64,000 bases of DNA from the IMG/VR virus record IMGVR_UViG_3300047160_036266, positions 96,001 through 160,000 of that record. One strand, 5' to 3'. Position 1 is the stretch's first letter. Each line of letters starts with the position of its first letter. Positions 2,337 to 56,703 of this stretch are shown here, one piece after another. A program made the position numbers and the translations under genes. The DNA comes from a virus (Duplodnaviria; Caudoviricetes). The notes under the pieces were generated by a model. That model was not told where the DNA came from and did not search any database. It saw only the letters and a list, made by a program, of their open reading frames with translations.

Positions 2337-3699
2337 GTGACATCACCTTTGGTTCGATTAGGGTTCCAGGCATGAAAATACCCATGTATTCACGCATGTC
2401 GTCGTAGATCGCCCGTAGCGTCCCCGTCATGGGATTCTTCTTGCACTCCTCAATGTGGACATCGCAGAAGTGGTGCCAGAAGAATGTGAAAAGCAGAAAA
2501 CCTGCCTCCGTCCAGTCATATTCCTCGAAGGCGGCGTTAATGCGCTTCTTAAAGTCCAGCCACTCATTCCAGACCGCCTCATTCTTGCCATCGTCAGTCT
2601 GCAAGTCCAAGAAACGCTTGGCGTTGCGCCACTTATTGACGCAGCGCTTGCCATATTCCATGACGACGGGGTTGATGCGGGCGTCGGACCCGACCTGGGG
2701 TTGTGCGGCCCAATAGCGGACGCCATCCGAAGTATGCTGGTCCATATACTTGCCAGGAGGGACGAAGTTGCCAGCCGTCTTGGAAATCTTCTTCCCTTTA
2801 TCGTCCAGAGCGTGCCCGCAGATCACTATGGTTCGCCACGGTATCTGGTCGTTGTGAAGGACGCTTTTGATGATTGTGAAGAGCGCCCAGGTGCGGATAA
2901 TGTCGTGCGCTTGGAAACGAACGTCGAAGATTGGGCATTTGAGAGTGAGTTCGTACTGGTTGGCCTCGTGCCAGGCTAGTTGCGGCGACAGGCTGGACGT
3001 GTGCCAGGTGTCAAAAACGATACCCGGCTCGCCGGGGATGGGGATGCCGTAGTTCCGTTCCCGGCTGATAGACCAGTCCGAATCGCACTGATCCAGCCAG
3101 GAGAGGAGGCGGCCCTTGTACATCTCCGGCTTCCAAACGATCTGGTCAATGGCGGCACGGATGCGGGGCAGGTTGTCGAGGACTTTGATGAACCAACCCT
3201 CACCCCGGCGAAGCTCGACCTTAGCACCACTGCGCTCGTAGCAACCGTCTTCGGTCAACTCATTTTGGGAGACGGAAACCTTGGTGAGCGGGCAGTAGTA
3301 GTATTCCCGCTCGGCCTTATACGCCTGGCCCTTGTCCACCAAGTCCTTGAAGGACAGTTCGGCCAGTTTGATGGCGAAGGGGCAGAAGGTGGTGTAGTGG
3401 TGCCAGGACCAGGCCATTGCCAGGCGCATGAAGAGAAGGTGGTAAGCGATGGACTCGTGGTAGGAAAAGTCAATGATCTTGTCCTGGTCGGTGATTCCAG
3501 CGGCCTGGGCGAGCTTTTCGGTGGGCAACCCGTTGTTGTCGTAGCAATAGGGGTAGACTAGGTATTCGCCCTTGATGTGGCGGTGGTAACGGGCAATGAA
3601 GTCCATTTGGGCGTAGCTGAAGACGTGCCCCATGTGGAGGTTGCCGCTAATCGTAGGCGGCGGACAGTCGATGAGAAAGCGTTTGTTCTTGTCGTGCAT
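2311..3699 (-). CDS. valS: Miniature valyl-tRNA synthetase (archaeal/type-2-like), no CP1 editing domain, truncated C-terminus
   Basis: IDCPPPTISGNLHMGH (HIGH), YDNNGLPTE, DWSISRER.YGIPIP, FDTW.TSSLSP, QAHDIIRTW, KISKT (KMSKS); start taken at ATG 3699; about 460 aa. Confidence 0.85.
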   Translation of the reverse strand: MHDKNKRFLIDCPPPTISGNLHMGHVFSYAQMDFIARYHRHIKGEYLVYPYCYDNNGLPTEKLAQAAGITDQDKIIDFSYHESIAYHLLFMRLAMAWSWHHYTTFCPFAIKLAELSFKDLVDKGQAYKAEREYYYCPLTKVSVSQNELTEDGCYERSGAKVELRRGEGWFIKVLDNLPRIRAAIDQIVWKPEMYKGRLLSWLDQCDSDWSISRERNYGIPIPGEPGIVFDTWHTSSLSPQLAWHEANQYELTLKCPIFDVRFQAHDIIRTWALFTIIKSVLHNDQIPWRTIVICGHALDDKGKKISKTAGNFVPPGKYMDQHTSDGVRYWAAQPQVGSDARINPVVMEYGKRCVNKWRNAKRFLDLQTDDGKNEAVWNEWLDFKKRINAAFEEYDWTEAGFLLFTFFWHHFCDVHIEECKKNPMTGTLRAIYDDMREYMGIFMPGTLIEPKVMSHGKTPPAQ

Positions 3700-4813: not shown

Positions 4814-5638
4814 ATGGACTTCACCGAATTTCTGCTTGAGGCCAAGTTTGCCAAGATCATGAACGCCCTCCGGGGTGACGTGCCGCACGTCAACCAAATG
4901 GGCATCATGACCGCCCAGAATCCCTTGGGCGTAGAGGCCCCGGCCCAGCAGAACAACGCCGCCAACCGGGAGCTTCTGAAGGAGCTTCGTCGCGCCAACT
5001 TCCGGGGCTACCCGGTGAATCCCCGCTGGATAATGGGTAAGTTTGGAAATATCGAGGACAGCTACTTCATCCCGCATATCGACCGGAATACCCTCATCAC
5101 CTTGGGTGCCCGCTTCGGCCAGCGGTCGGTGATCTGGGGCCAGAAGATGCAGGACGAAGATGGCACCTACATTCGCTTCGAGTATATCGACACCCCGGCA
5201 GAGACATTGCCTCTGGACCCGTCCACCTACCAGACATCGCAAACGAGGGACGTGGTTCTGGCCGGCAAAGAGGCGGCTGAGCGCAGCGATTTGTTCTCGG
5301 CCAAACCCTTTCCCCGCAGCGGCATCGACAAGCGCACCGGCAGGCCGGCGACGGTTCGGAAGTTCGTCATTCCCTTCTTTGATCCCACCTACGAGAAGGC
5401 GAAATTCGCCCCTGACAAGGCCAGTGTCATGAAGCCGGTCGAGGATTCCGTGTCCGCCGAACCCTCGTTCTTATCTTCCGAATTGCCGGACACGCCCGAA
5501 GTCCGGCGGCTGGTCGAGGAGATTCGCAACCGGGAGGGCAGCTTGTATGCCCAGGGTAAGGTGCAACGCTGGTATTGGGAGAGTCGGGGGCTGCTGGAAG
5601 TGTCCCTTCAGAAGCTTCGTGAAGTTCTTAAAGGTTAA
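4814..5638 (+). CDS. DUF3293-like protein with N-terminal capsid-targeting-like motif
   Basis: Start MDFTEFLLEA; GIMTAQNP...N..ANREL...RFGQRSVIW resembles DUF3293; TATATA 5 nt upstream of ATG. Confidence 0.55.
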   Translation: MDFTEFLLEAKFAKIMNALRGDVPHVNQMGIMTAQNPLGVEAPAQQNNAANRELLKELRRANFRGYPVNPRWIMGKFGNIEDSYFIPHIDRNTLITLGARFGQRSVIWGQKMQDEDGTYIRFEYIDTPAETLPLDPSTYQTSQTRDVVLAGKEAAERSDLFSAKPFPRSGIDKRTGRPATVRKFVIPFFDPTYEKAKFAPDKASVMKPVEDSVSAEPSFLSSELPDTPEVRRLVEEIRNREGSLYAQGKVQRWYWESRGLLEVSLQKLREVLKG

Positions 5639-6366
5639 TTGTTGGATGGGTCGAAGGTTTCCTCATCCTCGTCTTCATCCAGGCCCAGGTCTTCCCAGGG
5701 CACCGTTTCCAGTTCCCCGCTCTTGATCTTCTCGGTTGTCTCCTTCATCTCTTCGAGGAAGGCGGCGTTGTCTGCCGGCCCGCCCATGAAGGAAATATCG
5801 TCGTAGATTGCATCCAGCACGTCCAACAAGGTGAAGTCCCGTTCCCCCATGAAGATGAGCTTGGCCTTGCCGTCGCGCATCTTGGGGTCATAGATGCTGA
5901 CTTCCGTATTGAGCTTGACGGGCAGGTTGGCAAGTTCCCACATGGGGGAGTAGGAGACGCTGTAGCAGGTGAAGCCCTGTTCGTTGGGCTTGCCAATGCC
6001 GTGGAAGCCCGCTGACAGGTCGATGCTGTTCTTCTTCTTGTAGTTGTGGGTGCTGGCGTGCCAGTAGATTTCCAGGTGGTCCAGCGGTTCGGGGTCCGGC
6101 TCCATTTTGAGGACCATTTTGCGGGCGTCCTCGTGGAACTCGTCAATGTGCCGGCACCACGCATATTGCGAGATGAAGTCCTTCAGGTCAGGGAGCTTGG
6201 CCACCCCCTCGAAGATGTCCCGCAGCGTCACTCCTTCCTCGATCTCGCAGGAGCAGCGCAGCAGGGTCCAGATGTACCGAGGCCGGCGCTTTACATATTC
6301 ACGCGCGTCTCCGTCCCATTTGTAGGACCAAATGCCGTCCTTCTCGATTTTGGCATGTTCCGACAT
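5635..6366 (-). CDS. Hypothetical protein
   Basis: 243-aa ORF with acidic C-terminus. Confidence 0.6.
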   Translation of the reverse strand: MSEHAKIEKDGIWSYKWDGDAREYVKRRPRYIWTLLRCSCEIEEGVTLRDIFEGVAKLPDLKDFISQYAWCRHIDEFHEDARKMVLKMEPDPEPLDHLEIYWHASTHNYKKKNSIDLSAGFHGIGKPNEQGFTCYSVSYSPMWELANLPVKLNTEVSIYDPKMRDGKAKLIFMGERDFTLLDVLDAIYDDISFMGGPADNAAFLEEMKETTEKIKSGELETVPWEDLGLDEDEDEETFDPSNN

Positions 6367-6381
6367 AGCAGTTCCTTAATA

Positions 6382-6628
6382 GGTAGCACACTCCCGTAAG
6401 CAGGATTCTGTTCTATGCCATCATTTATCTCACAGGCCGTGGTGGGCCTGCGGCCTTGCGGCTGCACCTACCAGACCCGTTGCCCTGCTCACCGGCTGGG
6501 TCTATTTGGTTTGCACCCTCCGGGGTGGTAGCGATACTGAGCCTTGCGGCTGTTCTCTCCCCCGTTAAGCAGTGGTGTCCTGACTTTCCTCTATCCCTTG
6601 CGGGACAGCGATGGCTCGGAGCGCTACC
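6382..6628 (-). ncRNA. rnpB: Minimal RNase P RNA
   Basis: Minus strand: P1 GGTAGCGCTCC/GGAGTGTGCTACC, P2 GCCATC/GATGGC, P3 GTCCC-GCAA-GGGAT, CR-I GAGGAAAGTCAGGACACC, GGGTGCAAACC, GAGCAGGGC, GAGATAAATGATGGC, CR-V AGAACAGAATCCTGCTTA; P4 covaries (AAGTCAGGA/TCCTGCTT); 247 nt. Confidence 0.85.
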
Positions 6629-6671
6629 TAGTTAGTGATTGTACCAGGGATTTGGCCGGTTGTAAAGCCCC

Positions 6672-9185
6672 TCAATCTTCTGAGCCGCCGTCCGTTCCTG
6701 GGTCAGCGTCCTCCGATCCGTCGTCGCTCCAGGTCACATCCGGCGAGTTCCAATCCCAATCATCTGCGTTTTGAAGCCGCAATCGACAGACATTTCCAAA
6801 AAGGAGACGCCGGCCAGAGTCGTCATGGGTAATAACCGACTGGCTAGGATTAGCCGTTACCACATAACGGAAACCTGTGGTTTGTTCCCAACAACCTTGC
6901 CTCACGACCTCCTGAATAATGTAGCGACCGGGCCGAACGTAGAATAGCAGATCGCCGTTCCTGTCCGTTTCGCCCACTATCCTGTCATTTGCCAGAATGC
7001 GCCATCCCGCCAGACCTTCCTCGTCAGGGTCCAGTTCCCCATTGCCATTACGGTCGTTGAACTTGTGAACCAGAATGGCCACCTTGATAGGTCCAGGCTC
7101 GGCACTATCATCGCCGCCGCCTCCTCCACTTAAATTTCTTGGCGGGCCAGTTATCACTGGCTCAAAGGGATTGTAGGGCGAAACCACAAAAGGAGGATTC
7201 TGATTGGGCAGATAAGGCAGGAGGGATATAATCGCGTAGAGTATCTTTATCTTTAGCAATGCTCGCAGAATGTCTCCCTCAAGTGCCAAGTCAGGGTTTT
7301 CACCTGGGGGTTTTTCGCCACCGTCTCCTGGGGGCTTACCACCGCCACCGCCACCGCCACCGCCACCGCCACCGCCACCACCACCACCGCCACCATTTTG
7401 GGGAATTACCACGGTTTGTTCGGTGATTCCTCCCTGGTCGTTAGTAGCGTGGTTATTGCTGTCGCCGTTATAGTGAACCGTCCATGTATATTTGCCGGGC
7501 ACCGATCCCAGGGTGAAGCCGATTGGGGTAGCATAGGTTCCATTGCCGTTGACCGTTACCGTCTCAGTGTCCACCGTATTACCGCCCGGCCCCGTCAGGG
7601 TGAAGGTGATTGTGCCAGTGGGCGAAAAACCGCCGGCCAGGATCGCTTTGTCAGTCAGGATGGCCGAGGCCGGCAGGGTCACTGTGTTGGGGCTGGCGTT
7701 CGTAACCAGCGTGGGGCTGTTTGGTGTAATCACTGCTCGCTCCTGTGCAGGATTACTGTCGCTGAGGCTGTTGTTGTTGCCGTCGCCGCTGTAGGTGGCG
7801 ACCCAGAGGTAGGTGCCAGCGCCCGCCCCTGTGAAGCCGATGGGCGTTGTATAAGTGCCATTCCCATTGACCGTGACCATCTCCGTGTCCACAGGCAGGA
7901 TTCCACCGTTGAGGAATAGTCTGAAGGTGATAGTCCCGGTGGGGTCGAATCCCCCGGCCAGGATTGCCTTGTCAGTTAGCACTGGAGCCGGCAAAGGGGC
8001 TGTGGCGGGGCTGGCGGCTGTGAACAAGTTCGGACTGGCCGGTGTAATGACAACCCGCTCCTGGGTGGGATTGTTGTCGATGGTTCCATTATTATTGGGA
8101 TCGCCGCTATAGGTAGCGACCCATTGATAAGTGCCGGCTCCTGTGGCTGCATTCAAGGTGAAACCGACAGGTGTGGTGTAGGTGCCGTTGCCAAGTACCG
8201 CAACCATTTCCGTGTCCACGGGCAGGATGCCGCCGTTGAAGAACAATCTAAAGGTGATGCTGCCGACCTCGAAGAAGCCGCCGCTCAGCGTAGCCGAGTC
8301 CTTCAGCACCGTGGGTGTGTTGCCCAGGGTGACGGCGCTTGGATTGGCGCTGGTGGTCAGTGTCGGATTCGCCGGACTTACGACGGTTTGTTCTGCGGTC
8401 CCTCCTTGGTCGTTGGCGGGACTGTTTGCGCTATCGCCGCTGTAGTGAACTGACCATGTATAGGTGCCGGCCACTGATCCGGTGATGGATATATTGGTGC
8501 TGGCGCTGTAGGTGCCGTTACCGTTGACCGTTTCGGTCTGGGTGGACGAGAAACCGCCTGGGCCGTTCAACGTGAAGACGATGGTGCCTCCAGGGGAGTT
8601 GCCGCCGGACAGCACTGCCGTGTCGCTTAGTGATGCTATGCTCATCCCCAGCGTGATGGCGTTGCTGGCGGTGGTTATGAGCGTGGGTTGGACCACCGCC
8701 AGAACCTTGAAATTGTCCGTCTTGCTGTTGTTATTTTCAAAACCGAAATTGCTGTGAGGATCACCCGGATTATAGTCCGCCACCGGCGTCAGCCACACCT
8801 TGTAATTCCCCCCTGGGTTGGGCGTGGTGCTAAAGGGGAAAAGACCCACCGTTATGCCGCCGAAGACCGAGACGCCGATAGCGTGCGTCGTGCCGAGGTA
8901 AGCGTCGAAAACGCCCGCTGCTGAAACATGGGCCTCACGCTCGGTGATCGGGTCGGTGGAAAGTAGAGTGGAGCCGTTCGGGTCGGTGACTTGAAAAAAA
9001 TAGTCGCCGCTTGGGGTGTTGCCCTGGTTGCTATTGCCGACCCGGATATAAACGTCCGACTTGTTGGCGAAGTTGTTGCCGTTGATCGTTGACCCATCCA
9101 CGGTGGTGGCAAACACATTACCAGCAAAAGAGGGGCAACATCTATCTTCTAACTGCTCAAGCCTTGGGCGGAAGGTATTTCGCAT
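6672..9185 (-). CDS. Secreted surface/adhesin-like protein: planctomycete leader, four Ig-like repeats, poly-Gly linker, SdrD-B-like domain
   Basis: N-terminal RPRLEQLEDRCCPS; repeats PTL.T.AS...L.D.A.L.GG..P.GTI.F.L...GNGTY...Y.W...YSGD.NN; C-terminal KFNDRNGNGELDPDEEGLAGW. Confidence 0.75.
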   Translation of the reverse strand: MRNTFRPRLEQLEDRCCPSFAGNVFATTVDGSTINGNNFANKSDVYIRVGNSNQGNTPSGDYFFQVTDPNGSTLLSTDPITEREAHVSAAGVFDAYLGTTHAIGVSVFGGITVGLFPFSTTPNPGGNYKVWLTPVADYNPGDPHSNFGFENNNSKTDNFKVLAVVQPTLITTASNAITLGMSIASLSDTAVLSGGNSPGGTIVFTLNGPGGFSSTQTETVNGNGTYSASTNISITGSVAGTYTWSVHYSGDSANSPANDQGGTAEQTVVSPANPTLTTSANPSAVTLGNTPTVLKDSATLSGGFFEVGSITFRLFFNGGILPVDTEMVAVLGNGTYTTPVGFTLNAATGAGTYQWVATYSGDPNNNGTIDNNPTQERVVITPASPNLFTAASPATAPLPAPVLTDKAILAGGFDPTGTITFRLFLNGGILPVDTEMVTVNGNGTYTTPIGFTGAGAGTYLWVATYSGDGNNNSLSDSNPAQERAVITPNSPTLVTNASPNTVTLPASAILTDKAILAGGFSPTGTITFTLTGPGGNTVDTETVTVNGNGTYATPIGFTLGSVPGKYTWTVHYNGDSNNHATNDQGGITEQTVVIPQNGGGGGGGGGGGGGGGGGGGKPPGDGGEKPPGENPDLALEGDILRALLKIKILYAIISLLPYLPNQNPPFVVSPYNPFEPVITGPPRNLSGGGGGDDSAEPGPIKVAILVHKFNDRNGNGELDPDEEGLAGWRILANDRIVGETDRNGDLLFYVRPGRYIIQEVVRQGCWEQTTGFRYVVTANPSQSVITHDDSGRRLLFGNVCRLRLQNADDWDWNSPDVTWSDDGSEDADPGTDGGSED
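7338..7394 (-). repeat. GGT/GGC codon repeat encoding about 19 consecutive Gly
   Basis: (acc/gcc)n run on the plus strand. Confidence 0.9.
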
Positions 9186-12800: not shown

Positions 12801-13361
12801 TCAACCCTCCCGACGAATACTCTCCCATTGAATATACTGCGGCGGAACCCGATCCGTCAACCAAACGCCGTTCTCCGACTGGAAGAACTTGTAGCCATCT
12901 CGGTGCATGTCTCCCGACCGGACCACCAGGATGATCGGCTTGCCCCGCCGGGAACCGACCTTGATGGCGGTGTCGGTATCGGGTGACAGGTGGACGTGGT
13001 GGCGATCCATCCGCAGCAAACCCTTGGTCTTAATTTCGGCCAGGAAACGATTTACCGTCCCATGATATAGTAGGGCCGGCGGCTCCTTCTCTTCAAGCTG
13101 GAGGTCAACGGGCGTTGAATGGCCCTGGTTGGCTCGGATGAGGGTCTGGGTTGAGTCCAGCGAAAAGCGCTTCTTGTCGTTGAGTTTGACGCACTCCTTG
13201 ATTTCTTCCAGGGTCACAGGGAAGTGCTTCTGGCGGGCACCTTCGATGACTGCGGCGATTGAAACCCACCCGCCGGGCATGAGGGTGAGGCCAAGTTCCT
13301 CCGGCTCGTGGCGAAGGTACTTGGCAAGGAATTTGCTAACACGGATGAGTTGAGGAGTCAT
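12801..13361 (-). CDS. kptA: RNA 2'-phosphotransferase (KptA/Tpt1)
   Basis: SKFLAKYLRHEP, NDKKRF, IRANQGHS, LYHGT, RHHVHLS, VWLTDRVPP. Confidence 0.93.
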   Translation of the reverse strand: MTPQLIRVSKFLAKYLRHEPEELGLTLMPGGWVSIAAVIEGARQKHFPVTLEEIKECVKLNDKKRFSLDSTQTLIRANQGHSTPVDLQLEEKEPPALLYHGTVNRFLAEIKTKGLLRMDRHHVHLSPDTDTAIKVGSRRGKPIILVVRSGDMHRDGYKFFQSENGVWLTDRVPPQYIQWESIRREG

Positions 13362-30649: not shown

Positions 30650-30651
30650 AG

Positions 30652-30725
30652 TAGCACGGGTGGGAATTGCACCCACGGCATCTCAGTTTTTGAAACTAAG
30701 TGGTCTACTGTCTGCCTACCGTGCC
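30652..30725 (-). tRNA. Non-canonical tRNA-like gene, anticodon CAA (Leu)
   Basis: GGCACGG/CCGTGCT, A73; D-arm GGCAGACAGTAGACC without GG; 6-bp anticodon stem CTTAGT/ACTGAG; 5-nt variable loop; T-loop TGCAATT; 74 nt. Confidence 0.8.
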
Positions 30726-30729
30726 ATAT

Positions 30730-30840
30730 CCCGTGACAGGAGCATTGCGGTTTTGCGGCTGCGCCGCCTTTACCCCGCTCGCATTAGCCCCATGTCACCT
30801 GCATCCCGATGCGAGCCGTTATGACAGGTCGAGTCACGGG
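30730..30840. ncRNA. Candidate small structured RNA inside the tRNA-like array
   Basis: Closing stem CCCGTGAC/GTCACGGG and internal GCTCGCAT/ATGCGAGC. Confidence 0.35.
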
Positions 30841-30843
30841 AAG

Positions 30844-30917
30844 TGCCCAGGGCCGGAGTTGCACCGGCGGCATCACTGGTTCTAAGCCAATGTGGTCTGC
30901 TGTCTGCCTACCTGGGC
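30844..30917 (-). tRNA. Non-canonical tRNA-like gene, anticodon TAG (Leu)
   Basis: GCCCAGG/CCTGGGC, A73; CATTGG-CTTAGAA-CCAGTG; T-loop TGCAACT; 74 nt. Confidence 0.8.
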
Positions 30918-30920
30918 AAG

Positions 30921-30994
30921 TGGCACGGGTGGGAATTGCACCCACGGCATCGCTGGCTCTCGACCAACGTGGTCTACTGTCTGCCTACCGTGCC
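30921..30994 (-). tRNA. Non-canonical tRNA-like gene, anticodon GAG (Leu)
   Basis: GGCACGG/CCGTGCC, A73; CGTTGG-TCGAGAG-CCAGCG; T-loop TGCAATT; 74 nt. Confidence 0.8.
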
Positions 30995-30998
30995 ATAG

Positions 30999-31072
30999 TG
31001 CCCAGGGTGGGAGTTGCACCCACGGCATCAGAGGTTCTGGACCTCTGTGGTCTGCTGTCTGCCTACCTGGGC
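30999..31072 (-). tRNA. Non-canonical tRNA-like gene, anticodon CAG (Leu)
   Basis: GCCCAGG/CCTGGGC, A73; CAGAGG-TCCAGAA-CCTCTG; T-loop TGCAACT; 74 nt. Confidence 0.8.
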
Positions 31073-31920: not shown

Positions 31921-32048
31921 AAATTCTTTCGATCCGAATTGACATGATTGCCCAAATGAGTTATTGTCTCCTAACTGTAGTGCGGCTGGACGGGACCGCA
32001 CTACGAGGGCGGGTTGTGCGAGGGGGCACACCCGCCCATTTTATTTAG

Positions 32049-32123
32049 CGCCTGGGAGCGGTATCGCACCGCTGACCTCCGGTGTTTCAAGCCGGCGCTC
32101 TGTCTTGTCTGAGCTACCCAGGC
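32049..32123 (-). tRNA. Non-canonical tRNA-like gene, anticodon GAA (Phe)
   Basis: GCCTGGG/CCCAGGC, G73; D-loop AGACAAGACA (no GG); CCGGC-TTGAAAC-ACCGG; T-loop TGCGATA. Confidence 0.75.
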
Positions 32124-32127
32124 GTAA

Positions 32128-32224
32128 CCGGAGATATATTCGTTAAGGACTGCCGATTTGAACGGCCAATTCCCCTTGTGGGGGAACACATCACCTAGAA
32201 GTATTCCTTAACTGCACCATCCGG
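32128..32224 (-). ncRNA. Y-RNA-like element 1
   Basis: CCGGA/TCCGG ends, GGTGCAG-TTAAGGA-ATACTTC motif, T-arm GCCG-TTCAAAT-CGGC, TTAAGGA/TCCTTAA stem. Confidence 0.5.
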
Positions 32225-32227
32225 TAG

Positions 32228-32300
32228 TGCCTGGGGTCGGAGTCGCACCGACGACCTCTTGCTCTTCAGGCAAGCGCTCTACTGGTTGAGCTACCCAGGC
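32228..32300 (-). tRNA. Non-canonical tRNA-like gene, anticodon GAA (Phe)
   Basis: GCCTGGG/CCCAGGC, A73; D-loop AACCAGTA (no GG); CTTGC-CTGAAGA-GCAAG; T-loop TGCGACT; 73 nt. Confidence 0.8.
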
Positions 32301-56067: not shown

Positions 56068-56629
56068 GGTCGTCTCCGGTCCAGGGGTTCTTCCAGCACT
56101 CCCGGAGCCGCTGCTCTACCAGGGGTGGAACCCCTAGCTGGTCGCCGCCCGTCGAAATGCCGATCAGGGCTTGCACAAGGCGCTGCTCGTAGCGATAGTT
56201 GCGAACCTCGTCGTTGAGAAATAAAACGTGGTACTGCTTCCAGGCGCAGAATATGCGGCTCCACACGCCGATCTCGCGTTCGGGGTGGGCGTCGCGCATG
56301 AAGCCCACTTCCCACTGCTCCAGGGTGTACTTCTCGTCGTAGACGTAGCGGCCCACTGTCTGGAACAACATCCTGATCTTGGGCAGTAGGTCCGCCGGCA
56401 AGCTGCTGTGGCGGATCGGGGCATCCTTCAGGTCGCCCACGTTGACGCGAATCAACTCGCCCGTCTCCACGTCTCGCGCCTGGATGGTCGGCCCGATGTT
56501 TTCACCGTAGTGCCGCTCGTGGATCACCAGGCCCTTGGCGTGCCGGCGCTTCTTGTCGATCTCGCGCTGCTTGGCCCGTTCGCGTTTGGCCCGCCGTTTG
56601 CGCTTCTTGCGGTCATCTTCTCGACTCAT
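56048..56629 (-). CDS. Hypothetical protein
   Basis: 193-aa ORF with basic N-terminus. Confidence 0.55.
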   Translation of the reverse strand: MSREDDRKKRKRRAKRERAKQREIDKKRRHAKGLVIHERHYGENIGPTIQARDVETGELIRVNVGDLKDAPIRHSSLPADLLPKIRMLFQTVGRYVYDEKYTLEQWEVGFMRDAHPEREIGVWSRIFCAWKQYHVLFLNDEVRNYRYEQRLVQALIGISTGGDQLGVPPLVEQRLRECWKNPWTGDDHDHPNQ

Positions 56630-56703
56630 GTTGCCCTCGCCGGAAACGCACCACAGGCAGGGAGATTATCCCTGCCTATGGTACTGCGGAATGTCCAGGT
56701 TGT

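Follow-up and report, generated by a model that had tools for sequence, protein, structure and literature searches.

RNase P RNA is the universal ribozyme that trims tRNA precursors. The bacterial rule is a catalytic domain (C-domain) combined with a specificity domain (S-domain) that measures the tRNA elbow, and isolated C-domains are weak enzymes in vitro. Typical bacterial type A RNAs are about 350–400 nt long. The smallest bacterial RNase P RNA on record is, to our knowledge, the 276-nt RNA of Mycoplasma fermentans, and the only natural near-loss of the S-domain that we know of is that of the archaeal type T.

Here, we describe a gene of a huge soil phage that encodes a miniature RNase P RNA and is probably expressed and functional. 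The RNA resembles type A RNase P RNA (RF00010; E. coli M1 RNA, rnpB) in its helices P1–P5 and P15–P17, the P4 and P6 pseudoknots, the bulged U, the conserved regions CR-I, CR-IV and CR-V, the GCAA of J5/15 and the GGU of L15. By contrast, it has a length of 247 nt versus about 350–600 nt, lacks P8, P10–P14 and CR-II/III, features an extra P19-like hairpin and is encoded by a virus without rnpA. As in type T, the S-domain comes down to a single stem. In the model of the type T paper, P7 and P9 are separated by a lone T-loop, and the phage analogue is a conserved U...A pentamer bulge between P7 and the hairpin, for which a T-loop may be read from sequence conservation. Unlike in type T, however, the core is bacterial (L15 GGU, bacterial J-regions) and comes with no archaeal protein set; the reduction of the S-domain evidently had an independent origin.

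A catalytic domain without a functional S-domain is also found in engineered C-domain-only ribozymes (Eco CP RPR, PMC5839562); the C-domain alone is reported to be catalytic and the constructs cleave pre-tRNA, with reduced efficiency. While these are laboratory truncations, the phage RNA belongs to a natural, conserved gene family under selection. Likewise, orthopoxviruses encode an RNA resembling RNase P RNA (camelpox; PMC3001073), but this RNA showed no processing of pre-tRNA and has only a partial structural likeness, whereas in the phage RNA the conserved core elements are all retained and covary. Natural minimal RNase P RNAs of the bacterial type in phages would put the capability of the C-domain to the test in vivo and would add a ribozyme to the translation-related functions carried by viruses. 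In the open-access papers searched, we found no earlier report of an RNase P RNA encoded by a phage, the inactive orthopoxvirus RNA coming closest, nor of a reduced one in planctomycetes, and the miniature phage family is apparently undescribed.

Identity and anatomy of the phage RNA

The window analyzed here comprises 64,000 nucleotides (positions 96,001–160,000) of the IMG/VR record IMGVR_UViG_3300047160_036266, a 343-kb virus record that contains a terminase and is 69% complete by CheckV. An earlier note on its sequence had proposed a minimal RNase P RNA of 247 nt at 6382–6628, with P1, P2, P3 and both P4 strands, and had suggested a covariance search with RF00010 (RNaseP_bact_a). In a cmscan of positions 6200–6800, this model matches the minus strand at 6379–6627 over its full length (model positions 1–367 of 367; E 7.8e-20), and the named helices are all present in the alignment. 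The score of 65.9 bits lies below the gathering score of 100 bits, and a default Rfam scan of the window at the gathering threshold reports tRNAs only. Within the RNase P clan, RF00010 is the best Rfam match; cmscan reports a single match per clan, the best one, and suppressed another with a lower score. In the whole 343-kb record, the window copy is the sole RF00010 match. The best match is not to the type T model, no archaeal protein subunits accompany the RNA, and its context is bacterial and phage. P1 ends exactly at 6628 and 6382, which yields 247 nt and agrees with both the length and the coordinates of the earlier proposal. The MFE z-score of this RNA is −3.4.

The window RNA is an RNase P RNA carried by a phage and descended from bacterial type A, in which the catalytic domain is complete and the specificity domain has collapsed, a reading that is supported by the following features:

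6382–6628, minus strand: miniature RNase P RNA gene from the P1 5' strand to the P1 3' strand, 247 nt (RF00010 match, covariance model R1, covariation)
6591–6608, minus strand: P3 hairpin, 7 bp, GCAA loop (100% paired, 7 of 7 pairs with double changes in alignment A5)
6578–6591, minus strand: CR-I / J3-4 and P4 5' strand (GAGGAAAGUCAGGA), with the bulged U (RF00010 alignment, covariation)
6565–6572, minus strand: P6 5' strand (CUGCU), with its partner AGCAG at 6485–6489 (96.9% paired)
6516–6564, minus strand: collapsed specificity domain, consisting of P7, GAG..., a 4-bp GCAA hairpin (6540–6551) and a 3' internal loop ending in GCUACCA (covariation, subtype comparison)
6464–6517, minus strand: P5 3' strand, J5/15 GCAA, P15–P16–P17, L17 (P6 partner) and L15 GGU motif (UGGUAGG) (alignment, covariation)
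6434–6465, minus strand: two hairpins between P15 and P2, one P18-like (GCAA loop) and one P19-like, variable across copies
6417–6431, minus strand: J18/2 (CR-IV, AGAUAAAUG) and P2 3' strand (RF00010 alignment)
6397–6416, minus strand: J2/4 (CR-V, ACAGAA) and P4 3' strand (UCCUGCUU) (RF00010 alignment, covariation)

All catalytic-core motifs are present. These comprise CR-I (GGAAAGUC), CR-IV (AGNNNAAUG), CR-V (ACAGAA..GCUUA) and the P4 pseudoknot with its bulged U, and the C-domain is completed by P1–P3, P5, P15–P17, P6 and the L15 GGU, with helices that are 90–100% paired and carry compensatory changes. In P4, AAG-U-CAGGA pairs with UCCUGCUU; compared to the usual CCGGG/CCCGG, two positions have changed on both sides; the earlier note had likewise observed compensatory changes in P4. 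P6 is formed by ACUGCU and the AGCAG in L17, the loop of P17, and occurs in the compensated variants CUGU/ACAG and UUGC/GCAA. Three pairs of P3 are swapped between the window and its sister phage L024. The P18-like and P19-like hairpins are missing from several phage copies and from the Gemmataceae copies described below.

The specificity domain is where the RNA departs from type A. In the RF00010 alignment, 8 nt take the place of the 15 model positions of P8 and another 8 nt that of the 105 model positions of P10–P14, and the module that binds the tRNA elbow (P8–P14 with CR-II/CR-III) is gone. The collapse of this domain had been correctly predicted; it is not lost altogether, as P7, an asymmetric internal loop and one hairpin remain. 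P7 itself is not formed by the strands ACTG...CAGT, between which the earlier note had placed an insert of about 30 nt: the pairing ACUG...CAGU is kept in 71% of cases and equalled by 42 of 500 shuffles, which is no better than chance. Instead, ACUGCU is the P6 5' strand, and the true P7 is CGGGG/CCCCG, which is 98.5% paired, shows double changes in four of its five pairs and has 34 nt between its strands. Among at least 16 sequences of the subtype, this segment follows a common plan of GA(G), a hairpin of 2–12 bp with a variable loop, and a 7-nt strand (GCUACCA in the window) with U at position 3 in 13 of 15 members and A at position 7 in all 15. This bulge may adopt a T-loop fold. The S-domain has thus shrunk and not disappeared, and with P7, the conserved U...A bulge and one hairpin as its remainder, it parallels that of type T, a likeness that the earlier note had aptly drawn.

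Homologs in large tRNA-rich phages

Homologs were sought with a DNA pattern made up of just the two P4 strands, at a spacing far below that of normal RNase P RNA. It led to 33 IMG/VR contigs of 10–389 kb. All 12 contigs of the first scan have full-model RF00010 matches of 209–242 nt, with tRNA genes at each locus. The covariance model R1, built from the window copy and that of L024, recovers 29 of the 32 sources searched, with lengths of 183–273 nt.

In the alignment of these 29 homologs, 94.5% of the cells are paired, compared to 63% in shuffles and 33–39% with slid partners, and double changes occur in 52 of the 70 pairs. The latter include pairs of P4 and P6, and since these are pseudoknots, which lie outside the R1 model, their support is independent of the alignment method. 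Among the 29 sequences, one of the two variable P4 pairs is CG in 11, AU in 9 and GC in 8, and the other is AU in 21, GC in 3, CG in 1 and UA in 1. An alignment of 14 sequences of the subtype gives the same picture of covariation. Failure of the P4 pairing in homologs had been named beforehand in the earlier note as grounds for giving up the identification; the pairing holds, even in three copies that were found via their gene neighborhood rather than the pattern (L097–L099) and that have a differently compensated P4 (AGUUCUGGA / UCCAGGCU). The window copy and that of L024 are about 90% identical and differ in 26 of 249 columns; in six base pairs, located in P1, P3, P4 and P7, both partners have changed and still pair. 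Across the family, the bulged-U P4, J5/15, J18/2, J2/4 and the L15 GGU are invariant or nearly so. The window RNA is an RNase P RNA whose structure is conserved under selection.

The window gene is a member of a widespread family of RNase P RNAs of 180–275 nt in big, tRNA-rich phages, which combine a full C-domain with a reduced S-domain. Within this apparently undescribed family, it is an ordinary-looking representative, and the whole is a variant of type A RNase P RNA. Two relatives are encoded by genomes that have direct terminal repeats and are 100% complete by CheckV. Most family members lie within tRNA arrays, where the adjacent tRNA genes on either side are often only a few bases away; the window copy is flanked by protein-coding genes instead of a tRNA array and has its own promoter. 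An unannotated copy is also present in the cultured Stenotrophomonas phage DLP6 (KU682439.2, 105774–106022; RF00010 54.7 bits, E 3e-17), in the gap just before a tRNA-Arg gene, which makes this phage a system for testing. A blastn search of the RNA against 50,697 GenBank phage records gave no match because the family is too divergent; the DLP6 copy was found only with the covariance model.

One 115-kb viral contig (L007) has a GOLLD RNA (2438–2853), a tmRNA (6827–7195) and a miniature RNase P RNA (8917–9151) within one tRNA-rich stretch of 7 kb.

Promoter, transcript ends and gene neighborhood

The neighbors of the RNA gene encode a gp32-like protein, a Dda/RecD-like helicase, an HNH nuclease and a truncated class I aminoacyl-tRNA synthetase. 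Its immediate surroundings contain three features:

6638–6666, minus strand: sigma-70-like promoter with TTTACA, a 17-nt spacer and a TG-extended TACAAT (promoter scan, 10 of 12 matches)
6384–6629, minus strand: 246-nt head-to-tail unit from sequencing run X15 (276-nt contig; implied 5' end A6629, implied 3' end A6384)
5635–6366, minus strand: 243-aa open reading frame P0001 downstream of the RNA, with a ribosome-binding site that starts 6 nt past the RNA

The −10 hexamer ends 9 nt ahead of A6629, and transcription would start from this promoter at about that position. The same TTTACA-17-TACAAT precedes the L024 copy, in a flank that is otherwise unalignable. As no terminator follows the RNA gene and the ribosome-binding site of the next gene begins 6 nt past P1, the 3' end would come from processing, by a cut or by trimming just ahead of this site.

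Traces of such an RNA were looked for in public sequencing data. Four runs were compared with the region, leaving uncovered stretches out of the evidence; contig depth in these runs cannot rank genes. The broad search of sequencing runs gave none that is on record as RNA, and the search restricted to RNA gave X15, which is ambiguous, and one true RNA-Seq run with a small share. The X15 contig has 276 nt (246 + 30) and reads from 6426 to 6384 and then from 6629 to 6397, with no shared letters at the joint. This joint connects the predicted transcription start with the predicted 3' end of P1 (2 nt short). X15 is labeled as metatranscriptomic, WGS and random PCR, but is automatically classed as probably DNA. 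The simplest reading of its contig is a discrete 246-nt RNA that was captured as a circle or via template switching at its ends, while the contig could also reflect a strain with a tandem DNA duplication of exactly the 246-nt unit, or an artefact of reverse transcription. In the soil DNA run X1, the sequence continues linearly through 6629 into the upstream gene. In the RNA-Seq run, X23, a relative with 94% identity is represented by a 170-nt contig that does not extend beyond the gene and whose listed differences fall into loops or give wobble pairs; it lends weak support to expression, which we regard as likely on the whole.

Several further genes of the phage deserve mention. A protein identical to P0001 is recorded on a contig of 669,797 bp, and the phage genome or its source contig may therefore be about 670 kb long rather than 343 kb. 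A tmRNA was located by ARAGORN at genome position 12849–13200. The phage also encodes two proteins with an RNA_ligase domain (PF09414) and two of the CCA-adding/poly(A)-polymerase family (PF01743), which nothing ties to the miniature RNA, and its record has no RtcB:

G000:C1:329891-330409, 193282-193968, 56243-56671 and 324743-325225: PF09414 / PF01743 genes (domain match)

Gemmataceae relatives, protein partner and substrates

In 185,579 species genomes, the short-spacing pattern has 54 matches. The two best R1 matches among them belong to MAGs of a single Gemmataceae genus (GTDB), with 135.8 bits (L062/G006) and 111.5 bits (L049/G007). A family-wide search yielded a third genome (G037, 195.9 bits), whose copy is the closest to that of the window after L024, and a genus search added a fourth (G039), such that the miniature is found in four Gemmataceae genomes from two genera. 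The contexts of the G006 and G037 copies are cellular, with an aldehyde dehydrogenase, GFO/IDH/MocA oxidoreductases, xylose-isomerase-like barrels, a SASA esterase, Uma2 and a BamB-like protein; an ImmA/IrrE peptidase lies on one side of the G006 copy. Since the neighbors of the Gemmataceae copies have no homologs in the phage, these contigs are not fragments of the window phage.

A canonical RNase P RNA (370–600 nt, 202–310 bits) was found in 26 of 27 other sampled Gemmataceae genomes and a miniature in none of them. In G006, G007, G037 and G039, the search for canonical and type B RNase P RNAs returned nothing besides the miniature, these genomes being MAGs, in which absence is not proof; all four have a good tmRNA, and rnpA was found in G006, G007 and G037. 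As R1 does not align full-size RNase P RNAs, the canonical and miniature RNAs of the family were compared by motifs rather than in a joint tree. The canonical ones differ from the miniatures in P4, P5 and J2/4, and the miniatures share the phage-type motifs. In an unrooted tree of 122 columns, the window and L024 group with the four Gemmataceae copies with moderate support (88/84). The syntenic phage cousins L097–L099 stand apart from this group and are placed with DLP6.

From these data, we conclude that the phage lineage and these planctomycetes have exchanged the RNase P RNA gene, which also points to the host of this uncultured megaphage. Many unrelated phages have the miniature and few Gemmataceae do, which speaks for a replacement in the direction from phage to host, a reading that is possible though less likely than not. 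It is conceivable, but rather doubtful, that a phage-borne lineage replaced the canonical rnpB in two Gemmataceae genera and that the phage RNA exists as a 246-nt head-to-tail, possibly circular species. If so, free-living bacteria would perform essential tRNA 5' processing with a viral-type ribozyme that has no normal S-domain, together with an ordinary RnpA. As the Gemmataceae link further suggests, an RNase P RNA of no more than about 225–235 nt may suffice for some bacteria.

Two observations from this bacterial family may be added. On the contig of G007, 11 tRNA genes directly follow the miniature (L049, 5772–7332), which resembles the arrangement in phages although the contig was binned with a bacterium. 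In a complete Gemmataceae chromosome, a second, weak RF00010 match of 33.5 bits and 182 nt (L119, G012:C1:4869928-4870109) lies 900 nt downstream of the canonical rnpB and is not recognized by R1.

With regard to the protein partner, the absence of rnpA (PF00825) that the earlier note had reported for the window extends to the whole 343-kb record and to five related records, two of which are complete. Since the phage has no rnpA, the RnpA of its host is the likely partner with which the RNA would pair, and these Gemmataceae, which probably run on the miniature together with an ordinary RnpA, provide the best available argument for it. A dedicated phage protein as partner, or an RNA that needs no protein, is unlikely by comparison, even though none of the phage records searched contains rnpA. 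One candidate for such a protein is P0001, an acidic-tailed protein with a family of 58 members on huge-phage contigs; synteny of this family with the RNA is seen in the window, L024, L010 and L097–L099. However, one to three other genes separate the two in L097–L099, and the linkage may reflect nothing but the common descent of this block. Pfam and PHROG give no match for P0001, most members of the RNA family lie in tRNA arrays without a P0001-like gene, and the Gemmataceae with the same RNA have an ordinary rnpA; a role of P0001 as dedicated subunit is therefore unsupported.

The complex of phage RNA and host RnpA would remove the 5' leaders of pre-tRNAs, chiefly those of the phage's own unusual Leu, Phe and Ser tRNAs, and recognition of the tRNA elbow would matter far less to it than to the full-size enzyme. 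The phage has two sets of tRNA-Leu genes as well as genes for tRNA-Phe and tRNA-Ser, none of which encodes CCA, although the CCA-binding GGU motif of L15 is kept. The tRNA-Leu and tRNA-Phe genes in the window (30651–31072, 32048–32300) have the T-loops UGCAAUU and UGCGACU, in which G replaces U55, and substrates with such G55 T-loops would be well served by an RNase P with less elbow recognition. These unusual tRNAs are not the general reason for the family, because most other members sit among ordinary tRNAs. It is quite unlikely that the RNA forms an active RNase P with real targets other than tRNAs, such as phage operon transcripts, tmRNA or other leaders. The loss of the elbow-reading domain would relax tRNA specificity, the window gene lies between protein-coding genes, and the record also encodes a tmRNA, but the family as a whole shows a close association with tRNA arrays.

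We consider it very unlikely that the RNA is not an enzyme but a decoy, which would skew tRNA maturation by sequestering the RnpA of the host or by competing with its RNase P. The poxvirus RNase P-like RNA has been discussed as a possible decoy (PMC3001073), and a protein-binding core that is kept while the S-domain is gone would serve this purpose. A decoy, however, needs neither active-site elements nor the L15 GGU, which are nonetheless invariant or nearly so, and the same RNA is the sole RNase P RNA found in four bacterial genomes. Least likely of all is an unused passenger rnpB picked up from a Gemmataceae host: while the nearest relatives outside L024 are Gemmataceae copies in the 122-column tree (88/84), the differences between window and L024 are compensatory, the gene occupies the same position in distant cousins of this phage clade, a conserved promoter of its own precedes it, and dozens of unrelated phages keep counterparts of it. 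The preferred reading is that of a working ribozyme, which would act on tRNA precursors together with host RnpA.

Short RNase P RNAs were also encountered in other bacteria. An 857-kb deltaproteobacterial contig (L039, equal to the places L105 and L101) has a full-size RNase P RNA at 2808–3203 on the minus strand (396 nt, 273.7 bits) and, 2 kb away, a 233-nt miniature at 509–741 on the same strand, whose 5' and 3' ends are nearly identical to those of the full-size copy. The miniature looks like a recent paralog with an internal deletion, which implies that miniatures can arise independently. The short-spacing pattern also matches many Elusimicrobia and Patescibacteria MAGs. Two Candidatus Shapirobacteria contigs of 735 and 949 kb (L058, 514–758; L074, 7237–7494) have RNase P RNAs of about 245–258 nt that match best to the archaeal RF00373 (102–108 bits). 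Finally, in an isolate labeled Pseudomonas sp. NPDC096917 (G009; L088, 1169–1417), the sole RF00010 match is 249 nt long and scores 187 bits.
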